From NCBI RefSeq assembly GCF_055900595.2, contig NZ_CM148325.1: 64,000 nt of DNA. One strand, 5' to 3'. Below, piece after piece: positions 8,062-64,000 of the stretch. The notes beneath the pieces were generated by a model. That model worked only from the letters and a program-made list of their open reading frames with translations. It did no database searches and was not told the origin of the DNA. Made by a program: the position numbers and the translations under genes. Position 1 is the stretch's first letter. Every line of letters starts with the position of its first letter.

Positions 8062-9312
8062 TTAACTGTCAGACGCTGTCACCTGCGGCGGCGTCTGGCG
8101 AAAACGACGCAACTCTACCAGTACCAGCAACAACAACACGCCGATAATCAACAAACCAAAACCACTCGCGCTTGCGGAGGCCACCGGCGTCATCATCGCT
8201 CCCAGACCGCCCAACAGCGCTGCGCCTATAGCATCGCCCGTCACGTTTTGTGCCGTCCACAAACCGTTAATCCGCCCTAACATCGCTTCCGGGGTTTGCG
8301 TTTGCAGCATTGTGTATTGCAGCAACGAACTAACCGCGCTCAACCAGCCGAACAGCGCCAGACAAACCACGCCTAAAATCCACATCGGCATCAGGCCAAA
8401 CAAACCAATGGCGAGGAACGATCCCAGCGTGGAGAGCAGCATCAATAACCCTGGTCGCGCACTATGTGCCAGCTTCCCGCTGGTTAACGCGCCAATAGCT
8501 GCACCGAGCGGGATCGCCGCATAGAGAAAACCAATCTGTGCCGCCGACATCTGCCAGTTGTCAGCCAGCGCCGGATACAGTACCCGTACCGCGCTCGCCA
8601 TCGTCAATAAACCCCCCAGCAGCGCAATCCCTCCCACCAGCGGGCTGGCAAGCAGAAAACGAAATCCTGCCAGTAATGATTTCAACGGATGCTCACGCGG
8701 TTGCGGTGGCGGAGGTAGCGCCGGAAGGCTTAACAACGGTAGCAAGGTAATAAACGTGCCCGCCGCCGCCAGCCCGTAGTTCCAGGCTACGCCGCCAGTC
8801 GCCAGCAGTAAGCCGCCAATCATGGGCGAAATTACCGATCCCAGCCGCACGGTCAACATGGTGATTGCCCCGGCCTGCATTAAATTTTCACGCCCAACTA
8901 ATGCCGGAGTCGCCGCCAGAAGCGCCGTAACGCCAAGTGACGCGAAAAAGCCATCCCATAATCCGAGTAAATAGATTGCCAGCAAAGACGGCTCCGGCAG
9001 CAACGCGTTCAGGCACAGACCAATGAAGCCAATGCCACAGGTGCCGCGCGCCAGCAAAATCACTTTTTTGCGCTCATAGCGATCCGCCAGCACACCGCCG
9101 ACCATCAAGCCGACAAACATCGCCCCGCCGGTCAGCGTCACCGAAAGACCCACCTGCCAGGTAGAATGCGTCATCATCTGGATCTGCACTGGCACCGCGA
9201 CGCCGAGCAAACCCAGAGAAACAATAGAGATAAAACGAGCGAGGAATACTGCGCGAAACGCCGGGTGCGTTTTCAACAGGCTGAGGTTAAGCAGCCAGGA
9301 TTGTTTATTCAT
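8062..9312 (-). CDS. entS: Enterobactin exporter (MFS transporter)
   Basis: 416-aa highly hydrophobic ORF; position between fepB and fepD as in the K-12 cluster. Confidence 0.9.
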
Positions 9313-9385
9313 TACAATGCCTTGCCATCAAATATTTTAAATACCTATTCTTAGGCTGCACATGCTAACATATCCAAATAAGATC

Positions 9386-9410
9386 GATAACGATAATTAA
9401 TTTCATTATC
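9386..9410. promoter_or_regulatory. Putative Fur box in the divergent entS / fepD promoter region
   Basis: GATAACGATAATTAATTTCATTATC, an iron-box-like repeat immediately upstream of the fepD start. Confidence 0.5.
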
Positions 9411-9422
9411 ATGGAAGTTCGT

Positions 9423-42739: not shown

Positions 42740-43630
42740 ATGCGTAAGTTCATTTTCGTATTGCTGACACTGCTTTTGGTCAGCCCTTTTTCCTTTGCGA
42801 TGAAAGGTATTATCTGGCAACCACAAAACCGTGATAGTCAGGTTACCGATACCCAGTGGCAGGGGCTGATGAGTCAGTTACGTTTGCAAGGCTTCGATAC
42901 CCTGGTTTTGCAATGGACCCGTTACGGCGATGCATTCACCCAGCCAGAACAGCGCGCGTTATTGTTTAAGCGTGCCGCAGCTGCGCAACAGGCTGGCCTG
43001 AAGCTGATTGTCGGGCTGAATGCCGATCCGGAATTTTTTATGCACCAGAAACAGTCATCCGCGGCGCTGGAAAGCTATCTTAATCGCCTGCTGGCTGCCG
43101 ATCTCCAGCAAGCCAGATTATGGAGCGCCGTACCTGGCGTAACGCCGGATGGCTGGTACATCAGCGCGGAAATTGACGACCTGAACTGGCGCAGCGAAGC
43201 CGTCCGTCAGCCCTTGCTAACGTGGTTAAACAATGCGCAGCGGCTGATTAGTGATGTTTCGGCAAAACCGGTTTATATCAGTAGTTTTTTCGCCGGAAAT
43301 ATGTCGCCCGATGGCTATCGCCAACTGCTGGAACACGTTAAAGCAACCGGCGTTAATGTCTGGGTTCAGGATGGCAGCGGCGTTGATAAACTCACCGCTG
43401 AACAGCGTGAACGTTATCTACAGGCCAGCGCCGATTGCCAAAGCTCCGCCCCAGCAAGCGGCATTGTTTATGAACTGTTTGTCGCCGGCAAAGGCAAAAC
43501 CTTTACCGCGAAACCGAAACCGGATGCAGAGATCGCCTCGCTGTTAGCGAAACGTTCCTCTTGCGGTAAAGACACGCTCTATTTCTCTCTGCGCTATTTG
43601 CCCGTCGCGCACGGCATTCTCGAGTATTAA
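42740..43630 (+). CDS. ybcH: Periplasmic protein YbcH (third gene of the nfrBA-ybcH unit)
   Basis: 296-aa MRKFIFVLLTLLLVSPFSFAMKGIIWQP..., start immediately after the nfrA stop. Confidence 0.85.
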   Translation: MRKFIFVLLTLLLVSPFSFAMKGIIWQPQNRDSQVTDTQWQGLMSQLRLQGFDTLVLQWTRYGDAFTQPEQRALLFKRAAAAQQAGLKLIVGLNADPEFFMHQKQSSAALESYLNRLLAADLQQARLWSAVPGVTPDGWYISAEIDDLNWRSEAVRQPLLTWLNNAQRLISDVSAKPVYISSFFAGNMSPDGYRQLLEHVKATGVNVWVQDGSGVDKLTAEQRERYLQASADCQSSAPASGIVYELFVAGKGKTFTAKPKPDAEIASLLAKRSSCGKDTLYFSLRYLPVAHGILEY

Positions 43631-43812
43631 ATCTCCTCCAGGTAAGTCGGGTACGACCTGGCTTACCTCTTTCGCTCTCGTCAGAATTCCATCAAGATTA
43701 ATTGCTAAAAAGCGTGCTAAAGAAAGAAGATCGTTATCGGCGAACGGGCCGATCACTCATGCAGGAAGCATAGATCCTTTGAGCGGAGTTTCTGATATCT
43801 GAGGAGTGCGAA

Positions 43813-44574
43813 ATGCAATTGAGCAGCAGTGAACCTTGCGTGGTGATCCTGACCGAAAAAGAGGTAGAGGTAAGCGTCAATAACCATGCTACGTTTACCC
43901 TTCCGAAAAACTACCTGGCCGCCTTCGCGTGCAACAATAACGTCATTGAACTCTCAACGTTAAATCACGTATTAATCACCCACATCAACCGTAACATCAT
44001 CAACGATTATCTGTTGTTTTTAAATAAGAACTTAACCTGTGTAAAGCCCTGGTCGCGGCTGGCTACCCCGGTTATCGCTTGTCATAGCCGTACACCGGAA
44101 GTGTTCCGGCTAGCCGCCAACCACAGCAAGCAGCAACCCAGCAAACCCTGCGAAGCGGAGTTGACGCGCGCATTGCTTTTTACCGTATTGTCTAACTTTC
44201 TTGAGCAATCGCGGTTTATTGCCCTACTGATGTATATCTTACGCAGCAGCGTCCGCGACAGCGTCTGCCGCATTATTCAAAGCGATATTCAGCATTACTG
44301 GAATCTGCGAATTGTCGCCAGTTCGCTATGTTTAAGCCCCAGCCTGCTCAAAAAGAAATTAAAAAACGAAAATACCAGCTATAGCCAGATTGTCACAGAG
44401 TGTCGTATGCGTTACGCCGTACAGATGTTATTGATGGATAACAAAAATATCACTCAGGTAGCGCAATTATGTGGCTATAGCAGCACGTCGTACTTTATCT
44501 CTGTTTTTAAGGCGTTTTACGGCCTGACACCGTTGAATTATCTCGCCAAACAGCGACAAAAAGTGATGTGGTGA
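43813..44574 (+). CDS. envY: AraC-family transcriptional regulator EnvY
   Basis: 253-aa ORF with a C-terminal AraC-type HTH (QVAQLCGYSSTSYFISVFKAFYGLTPLNY). Confidence 0.85.
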   Translation: MQLSSSEPCVVILTEKEVEVSVNNHATFTLPKNYLAAFACNNNVIELSTLNHVLITHINRNIINDYLLFLNKNLTCVKPWSRLATPVIACHSRTPEVFRLAANHSKQQPSKPCEAELTRALLFTVLSNFLEQSRFIALLMYILRSSVRDSVCRIIQSDIQHYWNLRIVASSLCLSPSLLKKKLKNENTSYSQIVTECRMRYAVQMLLMDNKNITQVAQLCGYSSTSYFISVFKAFYGLTPLNYLAKQRQKVMW

Positions 44575-44619
44575 AGGGCAAAGCGGAAACAGATAAGACT
44601 GGCATAAATCAAGAAGAAA

Positions 44620-44664
44620 TGGCGCGCCCTGCAGGATTCGAACCTGCGGCCCACGACTTAGAAG
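44620..44664 (-). other. 45-nt copy of the 3' end of tRNA-Arg (argU), a prophage attachment-site repeat and not an intact tRNA
   Basis: Minus strand reads CTTCTAAGTCGTGGGCCGCAGGTTCGAATCCTGCAGGGCGCGCCA (T-arm, acceptor stem and CCA); identity to argU as recalled stops at the anticodon-stem side and there is no D-arm or anticodon loop. Confidence 0.75.
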
Positions 44665-45086
44665 TTCCTAGAACGACATTTTAAGTCAACAACTTACCGC
44701 GCCATCTCTGCGCTCACACGTCCCACTACCTCAAAACATGTAAAGCCTTGCAAGCCATTGTGAGGCCTTATGTGTCTCAGTTTTGTCCCTCTTTTTTGTA
44801 CTAAAAAACATAGTAATTGAGGATAAACCTCATGCTATTTTCGCTTATATGCCTCTAAAGGCATGGCACTTAAATAGATAAAAGCACCACAAAAGCATAA
44901 AAAACCACACAGTAAAACCGCAATATGAAACAATAACAGATAATTAAACCAAAAACAGATAGCGCATTGTGATAATCATTCAATACTAAACAAAATATAA
45001 ACAGTGGAGCAATATGTAATTGACTCATTAAGTTAGATATAAAAAATACATATTCAATCATTAAAACGATTGAATGGAGAACTTTT

Positions 45087-46040
45087 ATGCGGGCGAAACT
45101 TCTGGGAATATTCCTGACAACCCCTATTGCGATCAGCTCTTTTGCTTCTACCGAGACTTTATCGTTTACTCCTGACAACATAAATGCGGACATTAGTCTT
45201 GGAACTCTGAGCGGAAAAACAAAAGAGCGTGTTTATCTAGCCGAAGAAGGAGGCCGAAAAGTCAGTCAACTCGACTGGAAATTCAATAACGCTGCAATTA
45301 TTAAAGGTGCAATTAATTGGGATTTGATGCCCCAGATATCTATTGGGGCTGCGGGCTGGACTACTCTCGGCAGCCGAGGTGGCAATATGGTCGATCAGGA
45401 CTGGATGGATTCCAGTAACCCCGGAACCTGGACAGATGAAAGTAGGCACCCTGATACACAACTCAATTATGCCAACGAATTTGATCTGAATATAAAAGGC
45501 TGGCTCCTCAACGAACCCAATTACCGCCTGGGACTCATGGCCGGATATCAGGAAAGCCGTTATAGCTTTACAGCCAGAGGTGGTTCCTATATCTACAGTT
45601 CTGAGGAGGGATTCAGAGATGATATCGGCTCCTTCCCGAATGGAGAAAGAGCAATCGGCTACAAACAACGTTTTAAAATGCCCTACATTGGCTTGACTGG
45701 AAGTTATCGTTATGAAGATTTTGAGCTAGGTGGCACATTTAAATACAGCGGCTGGGTGGAAGCATCTGATAACGATGAGCACTATGACCCAGGAAAAAGA
45801 ATCACTTATCGCAGTAAAGTCAAAGACCAAAATTACTATTCTGTTGCAGTCAATGCAGGTTATTACGTAACACCTAACGCAAAAGTTTATGTTGAAGGCG
45901 CATGGAATCGGGTTACGAATAAAAAAGGTAATACTTCACTTTATGATCACAATGATAACACTTCAGACTACAGCAAAAATGGTGCAGGCATAGAAAACTA
46001 TAACTTCATCACTACTGCTGGTCTTAAGTACACATTTTAA
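45087..46040 (+). CDS. ompT: Outer-membrane protease (omptin)
   Basis: 317-aa MRAKLLGIFLTTPIAISSFASTETLSFTPDNINADISLGTLSGK... ending ...AGLKYTF. Confidence 0.9.
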   Translation: MRAKLLGIFLTTPIAISSFASTETLSFTPDNINADISLGTLSGKTKERVYLAEEGGRKVSQLDWKFNNAAIIKGAINWDLMPQISIGAAGWTTLGSRGGNMVDQDWMDSSNPGTWTDESRHPDTQLNYANEFDLNIKGWLLNEPNYRLGLMAGYQESRYSFTARGGSYIYSSEEGFRDDIGSFPNGERAIGYKQRFKMPYIGLTGSYRYEDFELGGTFKYSGWVEASDNDEHYDPGKRITYRSKVKDQNYYSVAVNAGYYVTPNAKVYVEGAWNRVTNKKGNTSLYDHNDNTSDYSKNGAGIENYNFITTAGLKYTF

Positions 46041-46289
46041 GAACGCCAACTAAAATTTCCCCGAGGTGAAAATCGCCCCGGGGAATAACTAGCCATTTCA
46101 ATGTAACAATTAACCCTTAAAATAAACCCAGAAGGTTATTAACTAAATCACATAGAAAACCATCAATTATAGTGTGTATAAAATAGCCGACAGCAACCCA
46201 ATTACAAATTAATGGTTCCAGAATATCACATCAAAAAACACGCTGTATAATATTATAATTAACATGTAGACAACTTGTAATAAACATTA

Positions 46290-47039
46290 TCAGTCAATTG
46301 TTTTGTTTATTCCATCTGTGACGCCGATTATTTTCTCAAAATAATGAGATGGCGTGACACCATAATAATCTTTAAATGCACATATGAAATATGAAGTACT
46401 GTTATAGCCACATTTCTGGGCTACGACATTGATAGAATAAGAGTTTGAAGTTATGAGTTTTTTTGCATACCTCATCCTAGTATCTCTCAATATTTCAGTA
46501 AATGACGTTCCTTCATCCCTTAATCTTTTTTTTATTAAACTTTCACTCGTATAAATCAATTCCGCAATATCTTTTAAATGCCATTGCCGCTCAATATTAA
46601 AACTGATTATTCCAGTAATTTTACATGTAAATGTATTTATATTTGTTAGTATAAATGAATTTACACTTTCGCGTTTTTTGAACATGGCAAGTAAGGATAT
46701 ACATAGTCTTTCTTTTAACCAAAGGGAGTGTGAGTCTGCTATTTTAATCCCTTCAAACAGAGAAAAAACAAGCGATAATGGAGGTTCCTCTTCAGCAATA
46801 TAGCCATTCTTATCAAGAGTAAATTTGCCAGGCAACTCATTATTCACGTCGATAAAAAAGGATAAACATGTTTTCTTATCTATATCAACAATTCTTAGTT
46901 TAGAGGGGCATACTGGTAACTCTCTTCTAATTTTGTCGCTTACAATAAACAATGAATTTTTTTTGAACGAGATAACTCTCCTGTTTATAATTAAATCAAA
47001 TGATTGACAGATGAAAACTACGGAGCAAACATAATCCAT
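46290..47039 (-). CDS. appY: AraC-family transcriptional activator AppY
   Basis: 249-aa [36 protein letters not shown]...; AT-rich gene and AT-rich upstream region (47040-47600). Confidence 0.9.
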
Positions 47040-48732: not shown

Positions 48733-49014
48733 TCACATCCAGCCACGAAGTTGATGCTCAACAACAACCGCGTATTCATCGAATATTGACGGTGTTTTCA
48801 CATCATTAATGATGCGCACGTTTACAAAATATCCGTCTTCCTTAACACATACCGGCTCGCCATCTTCAGTAATTTCCCCGGTTTCTTTGTACACGTTACC
48901 TATCACATCAATGAGAACATTGTTCTGCATCACCTCGTCATCGTCATAACCAATGCTATCCATAAAGGCCGAAAAGTCGGCCTTGTCTGTGAATTTGATA
49001 ATTAAGTCTCGCAT
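48733..49014 (-). CDS. Hypothetical acidic protein (prophage tail region)
   Basis: 93-aa ORF between the two tail-fibre-like genes; no family recognised. Confidence 0.4.
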   Translation of the reverse strand: MRDLIIKFTDKADFSAFMDSIGYDDDEVMQNNVLIDVIGNVYKETGEITEDGEPVCVKEDGYFVNVRIINDVKTPSIFDEYAVVVEHQLRGWM

Positions 49015-50024
49015 TATATTACCTCTCCCATTTGTGCATCGGTTAATTCTTTATGCCATATACGAAAATTACGAATGTGACCGAAAAGATGACGTAGACC
49101 GCTATTAGTCTGTCCCCCAATCCTGAAGAAATAACCAGATTTAACACCGACATGATCCGTGGTTTTAGGAGTCCCATGCTGGGCATTGCTAACGAAATGC
49201 ACATTACCAGATTCATTTAAAACAAATCCAAGAACAGATTTTTGTTCAAATAATACTGGCGATACGGCGGCTACTGTACTACCGTTTTTATTGTGCATCG
49301 TAACACCAGGAAATAATGTTGAACTAATAGCAACACTTATATATTGACCCGGAGTTGTGCTCCCACCACTGGTATCAAAAATTCGTGGTGCTGCATTTGG
49401 CGTTTCGTTCCAGTTTGTATGAACTTCAGCTAGAAATGTTAAAGGTGGTGTACCGATATTGTTATTTGTTGGTATATTCACCATATCACTGGCTCTTGTG
49501 ACTGGCGTTGCCTCAGTAATAATAAACGAAGAAGCGCACGAACCGCCTTCGACCTGAGGAGTTGCAACATAAATATAATCATCTGCACCAGTGCTTCCCC
49601 CTTTTGGTGGTGCATATTGCACCATCGCACCGATCATATTTTCTGTATCAAGTGCCTTAATTGTTGCCTCAAAGAAAATCCATTTGCTTGCTTCATTTTT
49701 AACAGCCCTTGCAGTAATACGACTTGCAGCGCCGCCAGTTTTATCAATCGATAAATCTGTCATATTTAAGTAAGCATCACCCAGGAATTTGTAGGTAGAT
49801 CCATCATATTCTTCAAATCGTAATCGACATCTTAAATTTGGAGTCCCACTTTGTACCCTGCATGAGATAGTTACATACTTTTCATCGCCGGTAACATCAT
49901 ATCCTTTGCTTCCAGATACTGTGACAATAGAAATGGCTGAGGTTTGCCCCACCATTTCTGGTTTTAATGTGAATTTTGCGTACTGGAAACCAAAATCATC
50001 TACACCTGATGTATTTAAAATCAT
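49014..50024 (-). pseudogene. Putative phage tail-fibre / receptor-binding protein, probably 5'-truncated by IS1
   Basis: ORF 49014-50048; its first Met codon lies inside the IS1 terminal inverted repeat and the next in-frame ATG (50024) has no ribosome-binding site; C-terminus ...GYFFRIGGQTNSGLRHLFGHIRNFRIWHKELTDAQMGEVI resembles lectin-like tail-protein domains. Confidence 0.45.
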
Positions 50025-50049
50025 ATTTGATGACGGTAATGACTCCAAC

Positions 50050-50553
50050 TTATTGATAGTGTTTTATGTTCAGATAATGCCCGATGACTTTGTCATGCAG
50101 CTCCACCGATTTTGAGAACGACAGCGACTTCCGTCCCAGCCGTGCCAGGTGCTGCCTCAGATTCAGGTTATGCCGCTCAATTCGCTGCGTATATCGCTTG
50201 CTGATTACGTGCAGCTTTCCCTTCAGGCGGGATTCATACAGCGGCCAGCCATCCGTCATCCATATCACCACGTCAAAGGGTGACAGCAGGCTCATAAGAC
50301 GCCCCAGCGTCGCCATAGTGCGTTCACCGAATACGTGCGCAACAACCGTCTTCCGGAGCCTGTCATACGCGTAAAACAGCCAGCGCTGGCGCGATTTAGC
50401 CCCGACATAGCCCCACTGTTCGTCCATTTCCGCACAGACGATGACGTCACTGCCCGGCTGTATGCGCGAGGTTACCGACTGCGGCCTGAGTTTTTTAAGT
50501 GACGTAAAATCGTGTTGAGGCCAACGCCCATAATGCGGGCAGTTGCCCGGCAT
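50050..50553 (-). CDS. insB: IS1 InsB reading frame (expressed as an InsAB' fusion by -1 frameshift)
   Basis: 167-aa ORF ...[33 protein letters not shown]...; overlaps insA. Confidence 0.85.
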
Positions 50554-50747
50554 CCAACGCCATTCATGGCCATATCAATGATTTTCTGGTGCGTACCGGG
50601 TTGAGAAGCGGTGTAAGTGAACTGCAGTTGCCATGTTTTACGGCAGTGAGAGCAGAGATAGCGCTGATGTCCGGCGGTGCTTTTGCCGTTACGCACCACC
50701 CCGTCAGTAGCTGAACAGGAGGGACAGCTGATAGAAACAGAAGCCAC
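50472..50747 (-). CDS. insA: IS1 InsA protein
   Basis: 91-aa [43 protein letters not shown]... Confidence 0.85.
50488..50499 (-). promoter_or_regulatory. IS1 programmed -1 ribosomal frameshift site (A6C run)
   Basis: Minus strand reads CTTAAAAAACTC in the insA / insB overlap. Confidence 0.5.
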
Positions 50748-50801
50748 TGGAGCACCTCAAAAACACCATCATACACTAAATCAGTAAGTTGGCAGCATCA
50801 C

Positions 50802-51430
50802 CCATTACCGCCCATAATGATGATATTAGTGACGCCCTCACTAAATTCTGCGTAGCTCTCAATATCATCATTTGGATCAAAAGTTTCTTTATCCTTACCT
50901 GACCACTCAGCACCGCCAGACTGAGTGATGATATTTTGTGGTTTAATATTCCAGTCCAGCTCATAACGTTCAATACCATCGCCCTCAATGATATTTTTCC
51001 CCGTTGTGATTGCCTGAACGGCAAGCCATTCAATACGTGCACGAATAGCTTTAGCCTGATTTACAATCGCCTGTTTAACTTTAATATTACGCGCTCCAAA
51101 AGCATTGTATTGCTCAGGTGATACACCAGCAGGGCGCACAGCTAACTTATTTGGATCAATGCTGCTTTTCGGCTTCATATAGCCTGGACGAATTGTTTTT
51201 GATTCGAACCCTTCGTCACGTGAAACTTTACTACCCACCATAGGAGAACAAAACGCTGCAATTGGGATATTTGGATCGTCGATTGTATCAAGAATAATAT
51301 CGCGCGATTCAAACATTACCGAGCGAGTAAAAAACAAACTGGTAAACAACGCATTTAGTTGTTTTTGTACATCTACAGCATTAACCACCTGTACAAGCTG
51401 AGTAGGCGAATATAAATCAACCATACGCAT
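50802..51430 (-). pseudogene. Divergent lambda-E-like major capsid protein gene, 3'-truncated by IS1
   Basis: ATG at 51430 gives MRMVDLYSPTQLV... (compare lambda E MSMYTTAQLLA); continues ...NIITQSGGAEWSGKDKETFDPNDDIESYAEFSEGVTNIII (compare lambda E NNITQSGGTEWSKRDKSTYDPTDDIEAYALNASGVVNIIV), then runs into the IS1 end after about 206 codons. Confidence 0.6.
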
Positions 51431-51640
51431 CCTCTTTGCATTCATTAAAAATAATTGTGGATATATGCTATCACCGATATTTGTCATGCGAACACATGCA
51501 ACCGAGTGCAATGTTGTATAAAGTTTTGGGGTGACAACTTCAGTGCGGACAATTAGTGTTAATATCTTCACTCCCTTTGGTCGGGATTTATGTAGCATGC
51601 CGGAAAATTTATTTTTTCTGGCTTTTTTTATTGGCAATAT

Positions 51641-52090
51641 TTAAAACGGGATATCATCTCCCCATTGCTCATTATCTCCCACTGGTGGCTGGCTTCCTTG
51701 CTGATCTGCCTGTTGTTTTGCTCTGTTCAGTGCGTCAGTAGCCTGCCCCTGTTGGCCTTTATTGCCGCCCGGTCGCACCGATCGCGCACTGATTACGCTG
51801 TCTGCGATAACCTGCCAGCCCTGCCGCGTTTCGCCGTTCTGTCCAGTCCACTGGCTCATCTGCATGTTACCCGCCACGCTCAGGAGTTCGCCTTTGTGAT
51901 GCTTTGCCAGCGCGTCGGCTTGTCTGCCAAACGCCAGGACAGATAACCACATCGTCGCCTGACCGTCATCCGACTGACTGCAGGGCAGTGATACCGCCAT
52001 ACGCGCCAGCGTCATGGGGGTGCCCTTGCTGGTCTGTTTTGTCTGCGGGTCGTCCACCAACCGCCCGTAAACTGATATTTGCGCCGTCAT
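51641..52090 (-). CDS. ssb: Single-stranded DNA-binding protein
   Basis: 149-aa ORF with an OB-fold-like N-terminal region, a Gly/Gln-rich linker and the acidic SSB tail ending DDIPF. Confidence 0.75.
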   Translation of the reverse strand: MTAQISVYGRLVDDPQTKQTSKGTPMTLARMAVSLPCSQSDDGQATMWLSVLAFGRQADALAKHHKGELLSVAGNMQMSQWTGQNGETRQGWQVIADSVISARSVRPGGNKGQQGQATDALNRAKQQADQQGSQPPVGDNEQWGDDIPF

Positions 52091-52332
52091 GCTGCCTGCT
52101 CTCCGGACTTAATATTGATTGTTGTCACTTCCTCCGCTTCAGCAATCTCCCGTTCGGTCAGAGTGGCAAAGTTTGCAGCCGCCGTTGTCATGAATGCGCT
52201 AATCAGTTCGGGATGTGCTTTCGCGTATCCTTCCCCGGCGTTGCGGTCGATGATTTTTATCGACACCCTTAACCAGTGTTCCGTCAAATCAAGGGCGTGC
52301 GATTGTGATTTTTTTGTGTGCTTCGCTGTCAT
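52087..52332 (-). CDS. Hypothetical protein, translationally coupled to ssb
   Basis: 81-aa ORF whose stop overlaps the ssb start (ATGA); no family recognised. Confidence 0.45.
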   Translation of the reverse strand: MTAKHTKKSQSHALDLTEHWLRVSIKIIDRNAGEGYAKAHPELISAFMTTAAANFATLTEREIAEAEEVTTINIKSGEQAA

Positions 52333-52379
52333 AGGCTTTATCTCACAGCAGTAAATTAAAATTTTTGCGTTTTAACCCT

Positions 52380-52610
52380 TCACCTGTTCACCTTTTGATA
52401 TTTTCTCTTTTAATTCATAATGTTAATGGGTGAACAGTTTCACAAAAACTATTCACCAACTGTTCACCACTGTTCACCCTTGAAGCTCAATAAACAATCA
52501 AAAAGGTGAACAGTGAATAGTTTGGTGAACAGTTCATAAATAACTGTTCACCCTATAATATACTGATATAAAAGATATTTATGACAGGGTGAACAGTGGT
52601 GAACAGTTAT
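52380..52610. repeat. Iteron array (about ten copies of CTGTTCACC / GGTGAACAG in both orientations), putative satellite origin of replication
   Basis: Copies near 52385, 52429, 52451 (variant), 52461, 52471, 52505, 52524, 52545, 52588 and 52598, interspersed with AT-rich spacers; the octamer TGTTCACC is the P4 type I iteron as recalled; lies directly 3' of the primase gene. Confidence 0.65.
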
Positions 52611-52619
52611 TCCATAAGT

Positions 52620-54440
52620 TTAATTTTTGCTATCGTCATTAGTGACCGATACACATGATGGCATCCAGTCTTCTGATTCCTCCGTCAGTGTCACGTTTGA
52701 ACGCAAACCGTGCTTCGTTTTCCGTTTCATATACTCCCTGCCATATTCCGCCATTGCCCCCGGCATATCTTTACCGAAGCGCGTCAGTGTTACAGGTTTA
52801 CCAAACCCATGTGCCCTCATATAAGCCAGATAGGCATGATAGAGATACCTGCGTGGGCTAAATGGCACAATTTCAGCATTACCCACTAACAGGCCATCAC
52901 ACATTACCGATGCCATGAGATAGCCGCAGAAGTCCACCAGCGAATCCCCCTCTCGCTTTATCGCCAGTGCTTCTTCAGATTTCTGCTGCTCATATAACAG
53001 GCGTCTGGCTTCGTCCTGATCATCAAACCGTGTAAGCAGATGACGAATCACTACCGCCAGCTCACCTTCTATTTTTTCCGCCAGCATCGAATCGCGTTCG
53101 TTCTCCGGTACAACTTCCGAAAAATTGAATATCACCCGACGACGTGAGATCCCCCCGCTGCGGTCACTGAATGACATGGCGTTATTGTTAACCGCCAGCA
53201 CTACTGCCGGAATACGCGTTGAATAGGGGGCTTTGTGTTTCGGGTCAATTGCCACCTTGTCACCGCCTGTAATGGCCTTAATCCCTGCCCCATCACCAGC
53301 GTAGCGGGTCATATCCGGCATGATAATCAGCGAAAAGCCAACCACTAACGCACGTTCCCTTGCATCTTCCAGCGCCTTCATGCTTGCTGATACTGTATTA
53401 GCCTTACCCGCCAGCATGGTGCAAATCTCCGCCATCACACTTTTACCACTTCCCCCCGGCCCTGTTACCTCAATGAATAACTGCCAGTCGTACCGGTTCG
53501 CCAGCACCATGAATAATGCCGCCAGTACGCGATCTGCCTTGCGGTCATTCTCAGCCACCGAACGGCGCAACCACTTCCAGAAATTCGGCGCATGTGTTGC
53601 CAGCGTTTCCCCCTCTGCTGGTGGGCTGAAAGGTAATTCACTGGCAATTAACAACCAGTCGTTTTTGTTATGCTCCCGAAAATTACCTGTTCTGGTATCA
53701 AATACCCCGTTACTGAATCCAATCAGGTTACGGGCTGTATTCCCCATTACAGGCAAACTTAACTTCATGGTATCTACCGCCGATTTAATGGCGTTCTGCG
53801 AATAGCTGATCTCCACATCAATGAAAATCTGCGCCATAGCACGCTGTAACTCTTTATCCTGAACCGGCTCCCATACAACGCCGTTGTAATGATGAACGGT
53901 GTCAGAGTCGGCATTGATTGCCAGTTCGCCGCCGTAATGTGCCAGGAGAACTTCACCGCGCTGGCTGGCCCCCATCTGATTCAACGCCAAAGATGAAGCA
54001 CGCTCGTCATTTTTGCGCTCTGCCTTCTTCACTGGCAGTTCAATCACCAGACTTTCCCCATGCTCCGCTTCAGCTTTTAGGCCGACAAGGCGCGGAGTCC
54101 AGTCTTCAGGCTCTCGATCAACAAAGCTACGGTAACAACGTGCTTCCTTTACGCCTGCAATAGCAAGTAATGTCGCAACCTTCGTCAGATTTTTCTCTGC
54201 GATCTTTCCGGCACGATAAACACGCACATAATGACGGCCTTCATCGATAATTTGCATATCATCCAGGTTTTCCAGTTGTTCCGTACCCAGAATTACTGGT
54301 GGTGTATCATCTGCTGCAATATGCTTACCCGCCCATTCATTCCATTCTTTTGCATGGCTCCAGGCATCACTGCCAGCAAAAATGATGACTTCTGTCATTT
54401 TGTCGCGCGGTTGGTATTTTAAGTTCGGAGCACGTTTCAT
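52620..54440 (-). CDS. Primase/helicase-type replication initiator (P4 alpha / D5-like, P-loop NTPase)
   Basis: 606-aa ORF; Walker A GPGGSGKS in the C-terminal half; iterons immediately downstream. Confidence 0.8.
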   Translation of the reverse strand: MKRAPNLKYQPRDKMTEVIIFAGSDAWSHAKEWNEWAGKHIAADDTPPVILGTEQLENLDDMQIIDEGRHYVRVYRAGKIAEKNLTKVATLLAIAGVKEARCYRSFVDREPEDWTPRLVGLKAEAEHGESLVIELPVKKAERKNDERASSLALNQMGASQRGEVLLAHYGGELAINADSDTVHHYNGVVWEPVQDKELQRAMAQIFIDVEISYSQNAIKSAVDTMKLSLPVMGNTARNLIGFSNGVFDTRTGNFREHNKNDWLLIASELPFSPPAEGETLATHAPNFWKWLRRSVAENDRKADRVLAALFMVLANRYDWQLFIEVTGPGGSGKSVMAEICTMLAGKANTVSASMKALEDARERALVVGFSLIIMPDMTRYAGDGAGIKAITGGDKVAIDPKHKAPYSTRIPAVVLAVNNNAMSFSDRSGGISRRRVIFNFSEVVPENERDSMLAEKIEGELAVVIRHLLTRFDDQDEARRLLYEQQKSEEALAIKREGDSLVDFCGYLMASVMCDGLLVGNAEIVPFSPRRYLYHAYLAYMRAHGFGKPVTLTRFGKDMPGAMAEYGREYMKRKTKHGLRSNVTLTEESEDWMPSCVSVTNDDSKN

Positions 54441-54724
54441 TTGTTACCTCCGGCAACTAACATTGCCCGAATTTTGCGGATATAGCCTGCGGCACGCCTC
54501 TGATTATCTGTCTTGCAATTTTTTACCAGAATGAAATCTCTTTCGAACTGCTGACGCGGCATAACACATTCAAAATCATAACCATCACGCAAATAAGAGA
54601 CACGACGATCATCAACCGAAATAATCTTTACCCGATAGCCATAGCTGTCTTTGAAAATATCCCCAAGGCTGATTTTTGAATGAGTTTGACCGCTGGCAAT
54701 AAAGCCAGAAAATTTATTTTTCAT
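54437..54724 (-). CDS. Hypothetical small basic protein, translationally coupled to the primase
   Basis: 95-aa ORF with a GGAG ribosome-binding site 8 nt upstream of the ATG; stop overlaps the primase ATG (ATGA). Confidence 0.45.
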   Translation of the reverse strand: MKNKFSGFIASGQTHSKISLGDIFKDSYGYRVKIISVDDRRVSYLRDGYDFECVMPRQQFERDFILVKNCKTDNQRRAAGYIRKIRAMLVAGGNK

Positions 54725-54727
54725 TTT

Positions 54728-54952
54728 TTATTCTCCGGTATAGCTCTGGTCGTGTATTTTTATAGCTTCATCCAGCTCTTTGATGACAGGATCAAGTAAC
54801 GTAATTAACGCTCCAGCTAAATTAGCATCCCGTTCATCGTGTTCCGCATTTGTTGTCCCATCAAGCCAGGTTGATAAGATTTCTCGCATATTTTTGCCAC
54901 AAACGAGCGCGTTTTCAGCATGTGTCAGCACTTTAAAATAAAGATCATTCAT
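54728..54952 (-). CDS. Hypothetical small acidic protein
   Basis: 74-aa ORF in the same operon-like array upstream of the primase. Confidence 0.4.
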   Translation of the reverse strand: MNDLYFKVLTHAENALVCGKNMREILSTWLDGTTNAEHDERDANLAGALITLLDPVIKELDEAIKIHDQSYTGE

Positions 54953-55148
54953 GGCACACCTCCTGACGAATACGGGCGGCGAATATCATCACGTAGCCAG
55001 TTGGGGATTGCAGCCGGGCTTCCTGTTCGCTGGCGGCCTCGATGGTAATCACGCGCGGTTGTGCCGTACTCAGGGCGATAAAACGCCAGATGTATTTATT
55101 CAGGTTGTGCGGGTCCCGCCCTTGCGGGTGTGTGGTATGATTTCTCAT
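54945..55148 (-). CDS. Hypothetical small protein (first gene of the leftward replication operon)
   Basis: ATG at 55148 with a GAGG ribosome-binding site 7 nt upstream gives MRNHTTHPQGRDPHNLNKYIWRFIAL...; the longer ORF to 55259 is probably an extension. Confidence 0.4.
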   Translation of the reverse strand: MRNHTTHPQGRDPHNLNKYIWRFIALSTAQPRVITIEAASEQEARLQSPTGYVMIFAARIRQEVCHE

Positions 55149-55287
55149 AGCTACCTCGATACTGTTGCTATCGTTGGTGGTTAGAAGCCCGTTGGTGTTC
55201 CTAGCACCTTCGGGCTTTGCTTTTTTAAGTGCCTCCGTGTTAAGGTGGTCACCTAACAATGAAAAGGCTAATTCAATAGGTGGTCAC

Positions 55288-55479
55288 TTGTCAACGATCA
55301 AACGCGATAAAAGTCCTAAGGGTGATGGGCAATCTCCACAATTCAGAATGCGAATTTCTCCAGAGCTAAAAGAGCAATTCGACAAAGAAGCGCAGAGCGA
55401 CGGCATAAGCCTAGCCAACTGGCTTAAAGAATTAGGGCGCAAAGAGCTGCTACGGCGCGGTATTGAACCAAAAGGATAA
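55288..55479 (+). CDS. Putative ribbon-helix-helix (Arc/MetJ-like) DNA-binding protein
   Basis: TTG at 55288 preceded by AGGTGG; product ...FRMRISPELKEQFDKEAQSDGISLANWLKELGRKEL has the beta-strand then two-helix pattern of Arc-type repressors; an alternative ATG start at 55348 is possible. Confidence 0.5.
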   Translation: MSTIKRDKSPKGDGQSPQFRMRISPELKEQFDKEAQSDGISLANWLKELGRKELLRRGIEPKG

Positions 55480-55506
55480 GAATAATTGAAGTCAAGGAGC
55501 TAACAC

Positions 55507-55863
55507 ATGAAATACGAATTCTTCGCAACAAGTAGCAGTAGTTTGGATGTATACATAGTCACTGTATCAAACGATTCTGGCTCTCTAATCATGACTTGTA
55601 ATTGTCCAGCAGGAAGTAAAGGTATTCTATGTAGACACCGTAAAGCTTTAATTACCGGAAAAATCCGCGGTATATTCACTCCCCCAAGAAGGAATAATCC
55701 CGAAAAATTACAAGAAGCTATAAATTTAATAGCCACATATGGCATAGATAAAACATTAAAGTTGTACACTGATGAGTTAGAACGAGCAGAACAGACTTGG
55801 ATAAGTGTTCGCGATAATTTGAGAGCAATGATAAACGCTCTTGTTGAACCACCTAAATATTGA
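55507..55863 (+). CDS. Small SWIM-type zinc-finger protein
   Basis: 118-aa ORF with an AAGGAG ribosome-binding site; CNCPAGSKGILCRH fits the SWIM CxCx(n)CxH motif. Confidence 0.55.
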   Translation: MKYEFFATSSSSLDVYIVTVSNDSGSLIMTCNCPAGSKGILCRHRKALITGKIRGIFTPPRRNNPEKLQEAINLIATYGIDKTLKLYTDELERAEQTWISVRDNLRAMINALVEPPKY

Positions 55864-55929
55864 ACTGTTCACATTGCCTATCAGGCGATAACCTCGTATT
55901 CTGATTAAGGCTAACTATATACTCACATT

Positions 55930-55955
55930 GGCGACCAATTCTGGTCGCCTTTATC
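55930..55955 (+). terminator. Rho-independent terminator after the SWIM gene
   Basis: GGCGACCA-ATTC-TGGTCGCC hairpin followed by TTTATC. Confidence 0.5.
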
Positions 55956-55994
55956 TACCATTTTTATAATATCATAGATTAAGAGTGTTAATCC

Positions 55995-56816
55995 TTACCC
56001 CCTGAATGGAATTGATGAGGATTTAATTTCCACAGAACCAAATCCTCTTGAATCCAAAAACATTTTTATACCAGCCTCAATAAAATCATAATCGCTTGTC
56101 GGGCCAATTGTAATGCTTTTAATTGGTAACTTTCTATTATCTTTATTATTAATAATGATATAAGGGATGATACCATTATTATTTATTCTAAATTTCACAT
56201 CTGGCATTTGTATCCACGGAGTAAACACCAGTCTAAATTCATTTTCTTCGATAAAACTAGGATGTTTAAAAAATGGGATATATTTAGATATAAATTGATA
56301 CGTAGAGACCATTGTTACAAAATGATCATTCATTTCTTTAATGTTAATACCATTACAAGAAAAAAACTCATCCAACTCCTTACTCATCTTTGTAATATCG
56401 TCATTATTTGAATATATAACATCATGTGCAACACAATTTAAATAAATATTTTGACAAAAACTCACAAGTTCATCCGCATCAAATTCAATGCAAACGCCCT
56501 GTTTATTTCCGTAACCTCTCCACTGACTTAACTTATCGTTTTCTTTACAAAAAGATATGCTATAAACATGTTTATCAATCCCTTTTTCTTTTTGTAACTT
56601 CCCTTTCTCATACATGTCAAGAGACTTGAGCAAAATAGTTTTCTTATCTTTTGGGATGATATTATCATCAACTATTTTAATTGTATTTCGAAAACATTCA
56701 CATCCATGGTTAGACTCCTCTTTATCATTTAAGAAATATATATTTGTAGCCCATAAAGAATTAGAGTCTAATATACCTTTCAAACCAAAAAGATCTGTAT
56801 AATGAAATATAGCCAC
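55995..56816 (-). CDS. DUF2971-like protein of unknown function on an AT-rich cargo segment
   Basis: GTG at 56816 preceded by AGGTGG gives (M)AIFHYTDLFGLKGILDSNSLWATNIYFLNDKEE...; the N-terminal aromatic-HYT ... LW ... NDxxE pattern is assigned to DUF2971 from memory; markedly AT-rich by eye compared with the neighbouring int/alpA. Confidence 0.6.
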   Translation of the reverse strand: MAIFHYTDLFGLKGILDSNSLWATNIYFLNDKEESNHGCECFRNTIKIVDDNIIPKDKKTILLKSLDMYEKGKLQKEKGIDKHVYSISFCKENDKLSQWRGYGNKQGVCIEFDADELVSFCQNIYLNCVAHDVIYSNNDDITKMSKELDEFFSCNGINIKEMNDHFVTMVSTYQFISKYIPFFKHPSFIEENEFRLVFTPWIQMPDVKFRINNNGIIPYIIINNKDNRKLPIKSITIGPTSDYDFIEAGIKMFLDSRGFGSVEIKSSSIPFRG

Positions 56817-56833
56817 AATGCCCCACCTAATAG

Positions 56834-57064
56834 TTAAGTCGTTTCCCACTCACCTCGAATCCATGCCTGCACTTCTGAAAGACGATATGCAACAGCAGTG
56901 GAACCAATCTTGATCCGCTTAGGAAATTTTCCTTCCTTCTCCAGCTTCCAGCGTGTGCTGTTCGCAAGAGTGGTTAGCTCCCGACATTCTTTCTCACGGA
57001 TCATACGATCGATGTTAGGAATGTACTCCAGACCCTTTTTATCAACAATTGCCATTTTTTTCAT
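56834..57064 (-). CDS. alpA: AlpA-family transcriptional regulator / excisionase-like protein
   Basis: 76-aa MKKMAIVDKKGLEYIPNIDRMIREKECRELTTLANSTRWKLEKEGKFPKRIKIGSTAVAYRLSEVQAWI..., immediately downstream of the integrase. Confidence 0.8.
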   Translation of the reverse strand: MKKMAIVDKKGLEYIPNIDRMIREKECRELTTLANSTRWKLEKEGKFPKRIKIGSTAVAYRLSEVQAWIRGEWETT

Positions 57065-57065
57065 G

Positions 57066-58301
57066 TTAACCAGCCTTTTGTTTGAGGATTGTCACTTTTG
57101 AATCAGCACCTGCGATGCTATTGAGATATGTAGTCCAGAGTTCCAGAGCATCCAGTTTTTTAGCCATAAACTTACTCCGGTTGTAAACACCCGCCACGCC
57201 AGGTAGCGCATGGCCTAACAGTTGTTCTACTACATAAAATTCAACACCGAGATCACTTAGATGAGTAGATAGCGTTCTTCTAAGGTCGTGTAGTGACCAT
57301 TGTTTTTCATGGCCCAAACGTTTACCGATTTTCCCCCCAATCTTGCTTACGCTTTCTCTAATTCGCAGACTTCCCAGCACATAACCAGTATGTTTTGTCT
57401 CTTCGTGAACATCCGTTACCCACTGTCGTAGAATTTCAGGTACTGGTCTGACGATTTCAACACCAGTTTTTGAGTGATCTTTTGGTACCGTCCAAACCCA
57501 ACTTTCGAGATCCCATTCGCTCCATTCAGATAATCGGGCTTCACTCATTCGACATCCAAATACTGTACAAAGCACAAACATTTTTCGCGTGTATTCAGAC
57601 ATTAGTTTTAAATCAGGCTCGACAAAAATTGCCTTCCAGAGCTGGCCGAGTTCGGCTTCATCCAGAACCCGATCCCGCTTACCTGCAATCTGCCCCACAT
57701 CACTCATGCGCAAATCCTTTAAAGCATCACACGTCGCGTACTGGCGTACCCGACAAAAACGAAGAGCTAATTTAGTGTCAGAAAAAACATACGCCGCCAT
57801 AACTGGTGCATTACGTTTAATTCGGTCAAAACAGTCCAGCCATTCATATAGGTGAGTGTCATTTACGGGCAAATGACCGATATAGGGAAAGATATGCTTT
57901 CGAAATCTGCCAAGCGTTACAGCATGAGTTTTACGACGCACCTTACAGTAATTTTCATACCAGTAATTTAGTGCATCCTCCACTGTGACCGGCTTTAAGC
58001 GTTCTTCAGCCTGAATCTTAATCTGGATACGCGGATCACGTTTGTCAGCCAACCAACCACGGCACTCGTCGCGCTTTTCCCTTGCCTGTTTGAGTGACAT
58101 ATCAGGATATTTACCCAACGTTAGCCAGACCGGAGCAGCCCGGCCACCTGCTAACCTGTAGAAGAAAACAAAGCTCACAGCCCCTTTAGTACTCACACGA
58201 ATAGAAAGCCCCTTTCCATCAGCAATGGTGATCTGCTTTTCTCTGGGTTTCCCCAGATATCCTTTAAGCGCTTTGTCGCTCAGTTTGTTCTCGCCAGCCA
58301 T
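57066..58301 (-). CDS. Tyrosine recombinase, P4-type integrase
   Basis: ATG at 58299-58301 gives MAGENKLSDKALKGYLGKPREKQITIADGKGLSIRV...; C-terminal catalytic region with ...HDLRRT... and ...LLGHAL...Y motifs; the 5' end sits about 160 bp from the point where the E gene breaks. Confidence 0.85.
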   Translation of the reverse strand: MAGENKLSDKALKGYLGKPREKQITIADGKGLSIRVSTKGAVSFVFFYRLAGGRAAPVWLTLGKYPDMSLKQAREKRDECRGWLADKRDPRIQIKIQAEERLKPVTVEDALNYWYENYCKVRRKTHAVTLGRFRKHIFPYIGHLPVNDTHLYEWLDCFDRIKRNAPVMAAYVFSDTKLALRFCRVRQYATCDALKDLRMSDVGQIAGKRDRVLDEAELGQLWKAIFVEPDLKLMSEYTRKMFVLCTVFGCRMSEARLSEWSEWDLESWVWTVPKDHSKTGVEIVRPVPEILRQWVTDVHEETKHTGYVLGSLRIRESVSKIGGKIGKRLGHEKQWSLHDLRRTLSTHLSDLGVEFYVVEQLLGHALPGVAGVYNRSKFMAKKLDALELWTTYLNSIAGADSKVTILKQKAG

Positions 58302-58433
58302 TTTTAGCCCCAAAAAGCAATACAAGCTGCAATACAGAGATGATTGCAACACACAGATAACGAGGAAAATTCAGTGAAAGCACCAGATAAACTTATTCTT
58401 TATTATCAAAAGATTAAGTGTAAAAACCAGCAA

Positions 58434-58709
58434 CTACACGAAAGCCTCAGAAAGCCATGCTAAGTGCTTGGGTTTGACATAACCCGGCGTAAATTCAGAG
58501 GTGGAGCCGCCACGGGATCGGATAACCTCACCGGAAACAATCGGCGAAACGTACAGCGCCATGTTTACCAGTCCCGGAATTTGTGAGAGATAGACTTTTT
58601 CCGTGGTGAAAGGATAGGTTTCACGGAAAAACAGGCGCAGAAACAGCGGATCGAACTTAAAGTGATGCTGGGTCGATGCCAGTAATTCTGCAGTTGTATA
58701 TACAGACAT
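58434..58709 (-). pseudogene. Lambda-like major capsid protein E, N-terminal 82 codons only
   Basis: MSVYTTAELLASTQHHFKFDPLFLRLFFRETYPFTTEKVYLSQIPGLVNMALYVSPIVSGEVIRSRGGSTSEFTPGYVKPKH then unrelated LAWLSEAFV and a stop; similarity to lambda E ends at 58463/58464. Confidence 0.8.
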
Positions 58710-58764
58710 AAATTATTTCCATAAAAAAAGCCGCACAGGCGGCCTTTGTTGATGAAGGGGAAGA

Positions 58765-59097
58765 TTAAACGATGCTGATTGCCGTTCCGGCAAACGCGGT
58801 CCGTTTTTTAGTCTCGTCGCTGGCAGCCTCCGGCCAGAGCACATCCTCATAACGGAACGAGCCGGACTTGTAGAACGTCAGTGTGGTGCTGGTCTGGTCA
58901 GCAGCAACCGCCAGAATGCCAACGGCTGCACCGTCGGTGGTGCCATCCCACACAACCAGCTTACGGGTAGTGCCATCCAGCATCAGCGGGGTCATTGCAG
59001 GCGTTTTCGCACTCAATCCGCCAGGCGCAATTGCTGTATGAGCCGGATCACTGTTACCCAGCGGCTGGTAATGGTTAAACTCTTCTTTTGTCGCCAT
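58765..59097 (-). CDS. Head decoration protein (lambda D-like)
   Basis: 110-aa [42 protein letters not shown]...FAGTAISIV, close to lambda gpD as recalled. Confidence 0.9.
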
Positions 59098-59106
59098 AAC
59101 TGCCTC

Positions 59107-60418
59107 TTATACCGGTAAAGCTTCAGGTGTATTAAGTAATTCTTTATTGGTATCAGATGCCAGGTTACCTGCAGCCAGCGGTGCCGGTGCACCCTGCATC
59201 AGACGATCCAGCGCAGTGTCACTGCGCGCCTGTGCACTCTGTGGTGCTGCAGCCAGAATGCGGCGGGCCGTTTCCACGGTCATTCCGGGGGTTTCGGCCA
59301 GAACGCGCGCCTGTTCTTCGCGTCCGTGAGCCTCCTCACAGTTGAGGATCCCCATAATGCGGCTGTTTTCTGCCGCAACCGCTGCGGTGATCTGCGCGTT
59401 CACGTCCGGCTGCGCCGCGCTGGCGTTTTCGCCCTCCGTCGCTGGCACCACGTCAGTAACGTCAGCCTGCGAAGCAGTGGCTGAAACAGTTGTTGATTGA
59501 GTCTCTTTGGTCATTCGCCCTCCTGAGAGACGGGATTTACGCGCATCCAGTGCATCACGCATGACGGTGATCGCATCGGTGCTGTTAACAAGTTCATCAG
59601 CCAGTCCGGCATCAATGGCCTCCTGACCGCTGTACACTGCAGCCTCGGTATCCAGCACAGCCTGCACAGACAGGCCGGTATATGCCGACACCTTCTGCGC
59701 AAACATCTGGCGGGTTGCGTCCATCCGGGACTGCAGTGTCTCCCGGACGTCATCCGGAAGATGGCTGTAGGGATTGCCATCCACCTTATGGCTGCCGCTG
59801 TAAATCAGCGTGATTTCCACACCCTGTTTCTCCAGGGCAGCACCGTAATTACTGTGAGCCATCATGACGCCGATGGAGCCTGTCCGGGCGGTCTGCGTGA
59901 CCAGACGCCGGGAGGCGGCACTGGCAAGCAGCTGACCTGCACTGCAGTTCATGTCGTTGGCCAGCGCCCATACCGGTTTTATGTCACGCACACGGGCGAT
60001 GATGTCAGCGCAGTCAAATGCCCCCGCCACCATTCCGCCTGGCGTGTCCATATCGAGCAGAATGCCGTCCACCATCGGGTCGCTGGCAGCCTGTTGCAGA
60101 CGGGCGATAATGCCGTTGTAACCGGTCATCCCCGAGTACGGCTGCAGCGCCCGCGTCCGGCTGACCAGCGTGCCGGACACCGGCAGCACGGCGATGCCGT
60201 TCATGACCTGATAACTGCGGGCCTGTCGTGGTCCGTCATCATCACCGGATAATGCCAGCGTCGCGAGTGCCTCCTGGGCAGTCAGGCTGTCGCCGGACAC
60301 CGCATCCGTCAGGCGGCTGATCCCAAGCTGGCCTGCAAGCGCACAAAAGAAAACCCGCGCATAGGCGGGTTCAAGCATCAGCGGCTCATTAAAGGCCATG
60401 CTGGCAATATGCGGGAGA

Positions 60419-60438
<20 letters not shown>
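59107..60438 (-). CDS. Head maturation protease / scaffold (lambda C-like, with nested Nu3-type scaffold frame)
   Basis: GTG at 60438 gives (M)TAELRNLPHIASMAFNEPLMLEPAYARVFF...; overlaps the portal gene end by about 20 nt as in lambda. Confidence 0.85.

Positions 60439-64000
<3,562 letters not shown>

Follow-up and report, generated by a model that had tools for sequence, protein, structure and literature searches.

The window analysed here is the whole stretch of 64,000 nucleotides (64 kb). At 52333-52619 it contains a 287-bp gap between a 606-aa ORF and an 81-aa ORF, both of which are encoded on the minus strand, and this gap is occupied by a dense array of short repeated sites (iterons). 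The larger ORF is pri (pri-rep), whose product is homologous to the alpha protein of phage P4. The features in and around the gap are listed below in plain coordinates of the window.

51641-52090, minus strand: single-stranded-DNA-binding protein (SSB) of the island, in the replication zone (phrog_44; RefSeq annotation in relatives)
52087-52332, minus strand: 81-aa ORF immediately downstream of the putative origin, syntenic in relatives (phrog_1231)
52377-52478, plus strand: distal module, with sites at 52377 (degenerate), 52385, 52429 (minus), 52450 (degenerate), 52461 and 52471
52505-52605, minus strand: pri-proximal module, with sites at 52598, 52588, 52545, 52524, 52512 and 52505
52385, 52461, 52471 and 52545, plus strand: exact TGTTCACC sites
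52429, 52505, 52524, 52588 and 52598, minus strand: exact TGTTCACC sites
52377, plus strand: degenerate site CCTTCACC
52450, plus strand: degenerate site TATTCACC
52512, minus strand: degenerate site AGTGAATA
52393-52428: spacer of the distal module, 36 bp, 83% A+T
52479-52504: central spacer joining the modules, 26 bp, 73% A+T
52553-52587: spacer of the pri-proximal module, 35 bp, 80% A+T
52620-54440, minus strand: pri (pri-rep), encoding the 606-aa initiator
52659-52949, minus strand: C-terminal winged-helix origin-binding domain, Pri residues 498-594 (match to PDB 1KA8, E = 2e-24)
53085-53954, minus strand: D5_N and SF3 helicase core, Pri residues 163-452
54057-54440, minus strand: N-terminal domain, Pri residues 1-128, common to the Pri protein of EcCICFT073

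Of the ten copies of the octamer TGTTCACC in the 64-kb window, nine are concentrated within the 221 bp of 52385-52605. Shuffles of the window gave an expectation of 2.04 +/- 1.25 copies per whole window, and none of them attained ten. All nine exact sites of the array are also exact copies of the 9-mer CTGTTCACC. Together with the three degenerate sites they form an array of 12 sites at 52377-52605, six in each orientation. An earlier note on this DNA had described about ten copies of the 9-mer in both orientations, separated by AT-rich spacers, at 52380-52610, and this description was borne out. The first iteron lies 15 bp from the stop codon of pri, and the GC content of the gap is 22-43%, compared with about 50-55% in the flanking genes. 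The counterparts of the 81-aa ORF on the other side of the gap are labelled hypothetical protein in three relatives (L002, L084 and L085).

The sites are not loosely scattered but arranged as two inverted six-site modules, each about 100-125 bp long. Read on the minus strand, the pri-proximal module shows the pattern > > (43 bp) < (21) > (12) > (7) >, where the arrowheads give the orientation of the sites. The distal module is an inverted copy with an equal pattern on the plus strand, and the two modules are identical at 79 of 109 positions (z = 16). Because the modules are inverted, the whole array makes one long imperfect palindrome with its centre near 52492, and for the same reason either single strand of 52370-52612 folds into one hairpin of ~110 bp (dG -47.5 and -50.7 kcal/mol, z = -7.8). 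Cruciform extrusion or a priming signal can be named as example roles for such a hairpin. By analogy with other origins, the AT-rich spacers at 52393-52428 and 52553-52587 are candidate unwinding elements; the within-module spacer length is kept in every iteron class described below.

In iteron plasmids, oriV consists of tandem direct repeats of ~17-22 bp, with DnaA boxes and an AT-rich element close by. An origin of this kind (RepA/pi/TrfA type) was considered and rejected, as the sites of the array are 8-9 bp long and lie in inverted modules, and the DnaA box TTATNCACA is absent in and near the array. Rfam families, C4/isrK included, gave no match in 50000-59000.

The helicase and C-terminal domain of the 606-aa Pri protein are 51% identical to residues 323-771 of P4 alpha, and the Pfam matches of Pri are D5_N, DUF5906 and Pox_D5. 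The Walker A motif GPGGSGKS, D376, NNN418-420 and RRR433-435 (the RRR finger) are conserved between the two proteins. The structure matched by the C-terminal domain, PDB 1KA8, is the solved origin-binding domain of P4 alpha. An AF2 model of the Pri domain has the topology H-H-H-beta-beta at modest confidence (pLDDT 61), and would place the wing hairpin at about residues 572-581. The Pri ORF is intact. Its translation is the commonest allele, being 100% identical in 20 IMG/VR loci and 99% identical in two more.

P4 alpha combines an SF3 helicase with a DnaG-type primase domain and, at its C-terminus, a winged helix (PMC2777425). Whereas the P4 initiator thus carries its own N-terminal zinc motif and primase domain, Pri does not: neither BLASTP nor hhalign profile comparison revealed similarity between its first ~148 residues and the primase domain of P4 alpha, and residues 1-145 have no NCBIfam or Pfam match. 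In the AlphaFold model, residues 1-145 fold into a small alpha/beta domain (pLDDT 77), for which Foldseek returned nothing significant. The modelled fold weakly resembles Toprim, but the acidic residues are absent, the positions of the Toprim glutamate and the DxD motif reading FAG and RAG. A degenerate Toprim identity of this N-terminus is a lead suggested by the model. The name primase, which the earlier note had also used, is an inherited label that finds no support in the sequence, and judged in this way the gene is a primase in name only. What stands of that assignment is the relationship to the helicase and origin-binding domains of P4 alpha; the P4-type primase domain is absent, and the gene is better named an alpha-like helicase and origin-binding initiator.

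A one-base variant of TGTTCACC, TGTTAACC, is found near 53186 within the pri gene of the window. Many relatives of ~87% identity (L029-L067 and others) carry an extra exact TGTTCACC inside pri, at about +540 nt, which may be due to chance.

In the P4 record (NC_001609), TGTTCACC bears the label "ori type 1 repeat", at ori (9310-9413) as well as at crr (4291-4590). The earlier note had equated the core octamer with the P4 type I iteron, and the annotation agrees with this. P4 has 11 exact copies of it, compared with nine in the array. When the modules were aligned with P4, the pri-proximal module matched the type I cluster of ori at 80 of 109 positions, site for site (z = 19), and the distal module matched ori at 60 of 75 (z = 26). 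The distal module also matched the crr repeat (48 of 58 positions, z = 17). However, both modules align across all six ori sites, whereas the crr repeat is matched over its first half only. This comparison with ori and crr had been proposed in the earlier note, and it came out on the side of ori, crr being matched less fully.

The P4 ori module has the layout > > 43 < 22 > 11 > 10 >, that is, spacings of 10, 43, 22, 11 and 10. Hence the octamer and the six-site layout are shared with the window, the modules being 73-80% identical to P4 ori, and the helicase and origin-binding domains of the two initiators are homologous. P4-like hallmarks found in the window are the clustered TGTTCACC sites in both orientations and the alpha-type SF3 helicase joined to a winged-helix domain. 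The overall arrangement differs. P4 has one module at ori, where type II repeats are also found, and its crr lies apart at a distance of 4.7 kb, while the window has two head-to-head modules at a single locus. In P4 it is crr that directly follows the alpha stop codon, with ori ~4.7 kb off; in the window, two ori-like modules occupy the position of crr. Like the modules, crr lies directly 3' of the initiator gene and contains two direct iterons, a T-rich spacer of ~35 bp and an inverted iteron. The two repeats of the window are inverted and match P4 ori throughout, whereas the two 120-bp repeats of crr are direct, lie 60 bp apart and differ from the modules in the distal half (+ + - - +). The bipartite cis requirement of P4, with ori and crr kilobases apart, has no counterpart in the window or in the complete relatives. 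A P4 cosmid paper describes crr and ori as present but inactive. A full-text search with the octamer and with "cis replication region" found no paper that prints this iteron in context.

A P4-like satellite with a P2-type helper was also considered for the element as a whole and was rejected. No sid, delta, psu, epsilon or CI RNA was found among the PHROG matches or the RefSeq annotation of the window island and the complete relatives, which have capsid and decoration genes and a lambdoid helper instead.

Islands of E. coli NRG857c and MLI108K3 share 98-99% identity with the island region of the window. In both strains the island interrupts the major capsid gene of a lambdoid prophage and brings capsid and decoration genes of its own. 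That of NRG857c is 11capE, a published helper-embedded phage-inducible chromosomal island (HE-PICI) stated to have "its own primase and origin" (PMC10111431). As indicated by the identity to 11capE-type islands and by the PHROGs, the PICI hallmarks are found here: int, alpA and pri in one direction, a length of ~11 kb and a lambdoid helper. Thus the element is a helper-embedded Gram-negative PICI of the 11capE type, inserted into a lambda-like prophage at its major capsid gene, which is a published configuration of helper-embedded PICIs (PMC10111431). Nucleotide identity to 11capE is 99% over pri, ori and their neighbours, and the integrase and the capsid-gene insertion are the same. Throughout int, the alpA-like gene and the regulatory zone, the window island is 98% identical to complete islands. 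The boundaries of the island in the window are marked by the following features.

50035-50802, minus strand: complete IS1 of 768 bp with both terminal inverted repeats
about 58464-58709: 5' fragment of the prophage major capsid gene
58765-59097: prophage decoration gene
59107-60552: prophage S49 protease

The portal and large terminase genes come next within the 58464-64000 region and run off the end of the window. At the other side, and unlike in 11capE, the island is cut in its capsid gene by IS1, which abuts and truncates this gene at 50803 and leaves a remnant ORF at 50798-51637. No 9-bp target duplication was found at the flanks of IS1. Neither the distal third of intact islands, which includes the distal attachment site, nor the prophage tail genes have a match left in the window. 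These observations suggest that a deletion associated with IS1 brought the island next to a tail-fibre-like remnant (49014-50048). Because this deletion took the distal third, the island is a remnant, in which the replicon (pri and ori) is intact in sequence but the satellite is not, and the island can probably not excise normally. The earlier note had inferred an intact replication module in a satellite that could replicate if supplied with a helper. The first part fits the intact Pri ORF and the intact site spacing, while the satellite itself has lost its distal third.

In Gram-negative PICIs, the origin is located immediately 3' of pri-rep and consists of two sets of iterons flanking AT-rich DNA (PMC6092414); the position 3' of pri is also stated in PMC10111431. 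Both features were found in the window, where the array immediately follows pri and two iteron sets flank AT-rich DNA. The closest functional precedent is EcCICFT073. Its pri-ori fragment lets a temperature-sensitive plasmid persist at 44 °C, an ability lost in the delta-ori and delta-pri derivatives, and its pri and ori together replicate a plasmid in DH5alpha without any phage function (PMC6092414). The cloning experiment that the earlier note had suggested has therefore already been performed, for EcCICFT073 (PMC6092414). As pri and ori of this island replicate without a helper, the helper is needed for induction and packaging and not for replication itself, so the part of the earlier view that tied replication to a helper does not hold for EcCICFT073 (PMC6092414).

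The origin of EcCICFT073 (13997-14284 of locus L085) has a layout and spacing like those of the window, with the iteron TGTCTACC. Both origins lie immediately 3' of pri and have two inverted iteron sets with AT-rich spacers, and the gene order around them is shared (DUF4222, pri, ori, small ORF, SSB, then the genes for major capsid and decoration proteins). The Pri proteins are 43% identical over their full length, the N-terminal domain included. On the other hand, the iteron of EcCICFT073 is TGTCTACC and not TGTTCACC, and its C-terminal DNA-binding domain is only 32% identical to that of the window Pri. EcCICFT073 is integrated in the chromosome, whereas the window island lies inside a prophage. 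Moreover, the origin of EcCICFT073 is validated by experiment, while that of the window is predicted from its sequence.

Taken as a reading of the sequence, the array is very probably the replication origin of the helper-embedded PICI, with a probability of about 0.85. The earlier note had already suggested a satellite origin, and this suggestion is supported by the adjacent gene for a P4-alpha origin-binding domain, by the homology to P4 ori and by the PICI precedent.

The array is strongly conserved. It was kept right after the pri stop codon in 80 of 80 IMG/VR relatives (85-100% protein identity), and nearly all of them had sites at the offsets 0, 10, 53, 74, 93, 127, 137, 169 and 213, with a few lacking one or two exact sites. 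The 12 sites of the window keep this family-standard spacing. A wider scan took one genome per species and gave 80 loci, from Enterobacterales and one Oceanisphaera. In most of these species loci, repeats formed an array within 400 bp downstream of the gene, and the palindromic layout was alike in all 19 arrays whose sites were mapped. Among nine species using TGTTCACC, the iteron columns were 92% conserved and the spacers 73% (Mann-Whitney p = 4e-14). The iterons themselves differ between groups as follows.

TGTTCACC: islands of Klebsiella, Citrobacter, Raoultella, Pluralibacter and Pectobacterium, and P4
TGTTCACC: with the 813-aa alpha proteins of Xenorhabdus and Photorhabdus
TCTCCACC: Yersinia, Rahnella, Edaphovirga and Erwinia
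TGTCCRCC: Serratia
TGTCTACC / TATCTACC: CFT073, Kluyvera georgiana and Raoultella ornithinolytica
TGTATACC: Lelliottia
TGTTCATA: Escherichia sp. ESNIH1 and Mangrovibacter
TGTATAGT: Oceanisphaera

At least seven iteron specificities are thus placed on one conserved palindromic layout (loci L099, L152, L096, L102, L162-L164 and L160). The octamer tracks the C-terminal domain of the initiator, and neither the helicase nor the N-terminus. In Kluyvera georgiana (L099), the helicase is 90% and the C-terminal domain 64% identical to those of the window, and the iteron is TGTCTACC; in Pectobacterium (L091), the N-terminus is unrelated, the C-terminal domain is 80% identical, and the iteron is TGTTCACC. 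On the alignment, the differences between iteron classes cluster in the beta-hairpin wing and include insertions of one and five residues. This comparison of sequences suggests that changes in iteron specificity go together with changes in the C-terminal wing and do not depend on the helicase or the N-terminal domain, and cases such as the Kluyvera and Pectobacterium loci would amount to a natural domain-swap series.

Within the Pri family, at least three interchangeable N-termini were seen on one helicase core. One is the P4-type zinc finger and primase of the ~813-aa proteins in Xenorhabdus and Photorhabdus, another is the PICI-type 128-aa domain of the window Pri and EcCICFT073, and a further one is an unrelated domain of ~128 aa in Pectobacterium, Yersinia and Serratia (L091, L096, L102 and others). 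No recognisable primase signature was found in either of the two short N-termini.

A working model can be proposed on these grounds. By homology and by the co-variation across species, the winged-helix domain of Pri would bind the twelve TGTTCACC-type sites. Initiator molecules would then assemble on both modules, oligomerise and melt an AT-rich spacer, in analogy to P4 alpha. The inverted modules might load helicase rings in opposite directions, as the analogy with P4 alpha, SV40 and papillomavirus suggests. In SV40 large T antigen and papillomavirus E1, an SF3 helicase is likewise fused to an origin-binding domain, and inverted sites flank AT-rich DNA. Head-to-head helicase loading is therefore a possible working likeness, although the DNA-binding domain is unrelated (a winged helix here) and the origins have no sequence relationship. 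P4 alpha and PICI Pri proteins are not known to assemble into double hexamers. Priming would probably rely on host DnaG, because Pri does not have the zinc-finger and DnaG-type primase part of P4 alpha. The island SSB, encoded two genes downstream, would be expected to assist replication. The two adjacent modules might do at one place the job of the separated ori and crr of P4.

Other explanations of the array have to be weighed against an origin. Since the element directly 3' of alpha in P4 is crr, with ori at a distance, and the modules of the window also align with the crr repeat, the array could be a crr-like cis enhancer that binds the initiator, the true start of replication lying elsewhere in the island. 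This is highly unlikely because there is no second cluster and because the modules match P4 ori better than crr, over the whole length. In the window no second iteron cluster was found, 54440-58400 showing only scattered single matches with one mismatch, and the complete relatives L002, L084, L003 and L085 have one cluster in each whole island. Furthermore, the pri-ori fragment of EcCICFT073 replicates by itself (PMC6092414). A mainly transcriptional function, in which the bound initiator autoregulates pri or gates read-through into the SSB and capsid genes, is also improbable. The array does lie within a unidirectional operon, and no terminator separates pri from the genes that follow. Initiators that bind iterons often double as regulators as well, and this habit speaks for such a function. 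However, a consensus scan of 52000-52800 detected neither a sigma-70-like promoter nor an intrinsic terminator, and the array is placed downstream of pri, away from the promoter of that gene. Conservation of the two modules with their fixed AT-rich spacers speaks for an origin, as does the delta-ori phenotype of EcCICFT073; gating of read-through may still be a secondary role of the array. That the repeats are a packaging signal (cos or pac) or a chance feature of low complexity is hardly credible. Gram-negative PICIs do carry the helper cos site (PMC6092414), somewhere in the island. Yet the lambda cosN core is absent from the 64-kb window, the enrichment of the octamer far exceeds chance, and the octamer is a known initiator-binding site that co-varies with the DNA-binding domain of the initiator.

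The most serious reservation concerns the activity of the array rather than its identity. It is possible, though rather unlikely, that the array is an origin by descent but an inert fossil in a decaying island and prophage. IS1 (50035-50802) took the distal third of the island with the distal attachment site, as well as the prophage tail genes. In addition, 11capE showed little replication after excision: upon induction, the attP:attB ratio was near 1 in two of three repeats and 1.6-1.9 in the third (PMC10111431). With a ratio near 1, autonomous replication after excision is weak or absent under those conditions. Against a fossil stand the Pri protein, which is the commonest allele with intact helicase motifs, all 12 sites at family-standard spacing, and int, the alpA-like gene and the regulatory zone at 98% identity to complete islands. 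With the initiator, its sites and the island genes preserved in this manner, the replicon could still fire in place.

The kind of element, the position and organisation of its origin, and this very island are already known from the literature (PMC6092414, PMC10111431). The value of the present analysis thus lies mainly in the correct annotation of 52377-52605 as the probable origin of a helper-embedded PICI. Modest additions to those two papers are that a PICI origin module is homologous to P4 ori site for site, and that at least seven iteron classes seem to switch with the winged-helix wing. Further modest additions are one two-module locus in place of ori and crr of P4, and an initiator with no recognisable primase domain. 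According to PMC6092414, no other known replicon has the organisation of PICI origins, and P4 evolved independently. The homology to P4 ori and the wing-linked specificity bear on how origins might be cross-recognised between satellite families and how specificity is encoded.

A bolder proposal drawn from the same sequences, which we regard as tentative and on the whole doubtful, is that the PICI lineage uses the P4 origin code, its primase domain having been swapped for a short domain that may be dead, and that the satellites cross-recognise each other's origins. P4-like satellites exploit P2-type phages and PICIs exploit lambdoid phages. If the code were shared, members of the two families could fire, titrate or exclude each other's origins in a shared cell. 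The Pri family would then offer a natural domain-swap series with three N-termini and at least seven iteron specificities, and an alpha-type initiator would be seen to work without a primase of its own.

Near-identical islands differ in their accessory genes (55507-56849 in the window, 7418-9134 in L002 and 6095-7237 in L084), and compared with 11capE, the middle "Bro zone" and the cargo genes vary between strains. Genes for DUF2971 and SWIM-zinc-finger proteins are found in the window island and in MLI108K3, DUF262 and HEPN genes in the NRG857c island, and a TIR-domain gene in MLI108K3. These variable genes are probably anti-phage cargo. To the left of the prophage remnant, 39746-47039 contains nfrA (phage receptor), a DUF4434 gene, two AraC-family regulators and an omptin-family protease. 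This segment is similar to the DLP12 prophage region of E. coli at its right end.

The only megablast match in the phage collection was LR881103 (L003, "Escherichia phage vB_KppS-Ant", 16.5 kb), a record submitted as that of an induced phage. It encodes an integrase and combines an alpha-like pri with a two-module TGTTCACC origin (4600-4828); capsid, portal, connector and terminase genes are present, but few tail genes. In its gene content, LR881103 resembles a satellite that forms capsids more than a complete phage.
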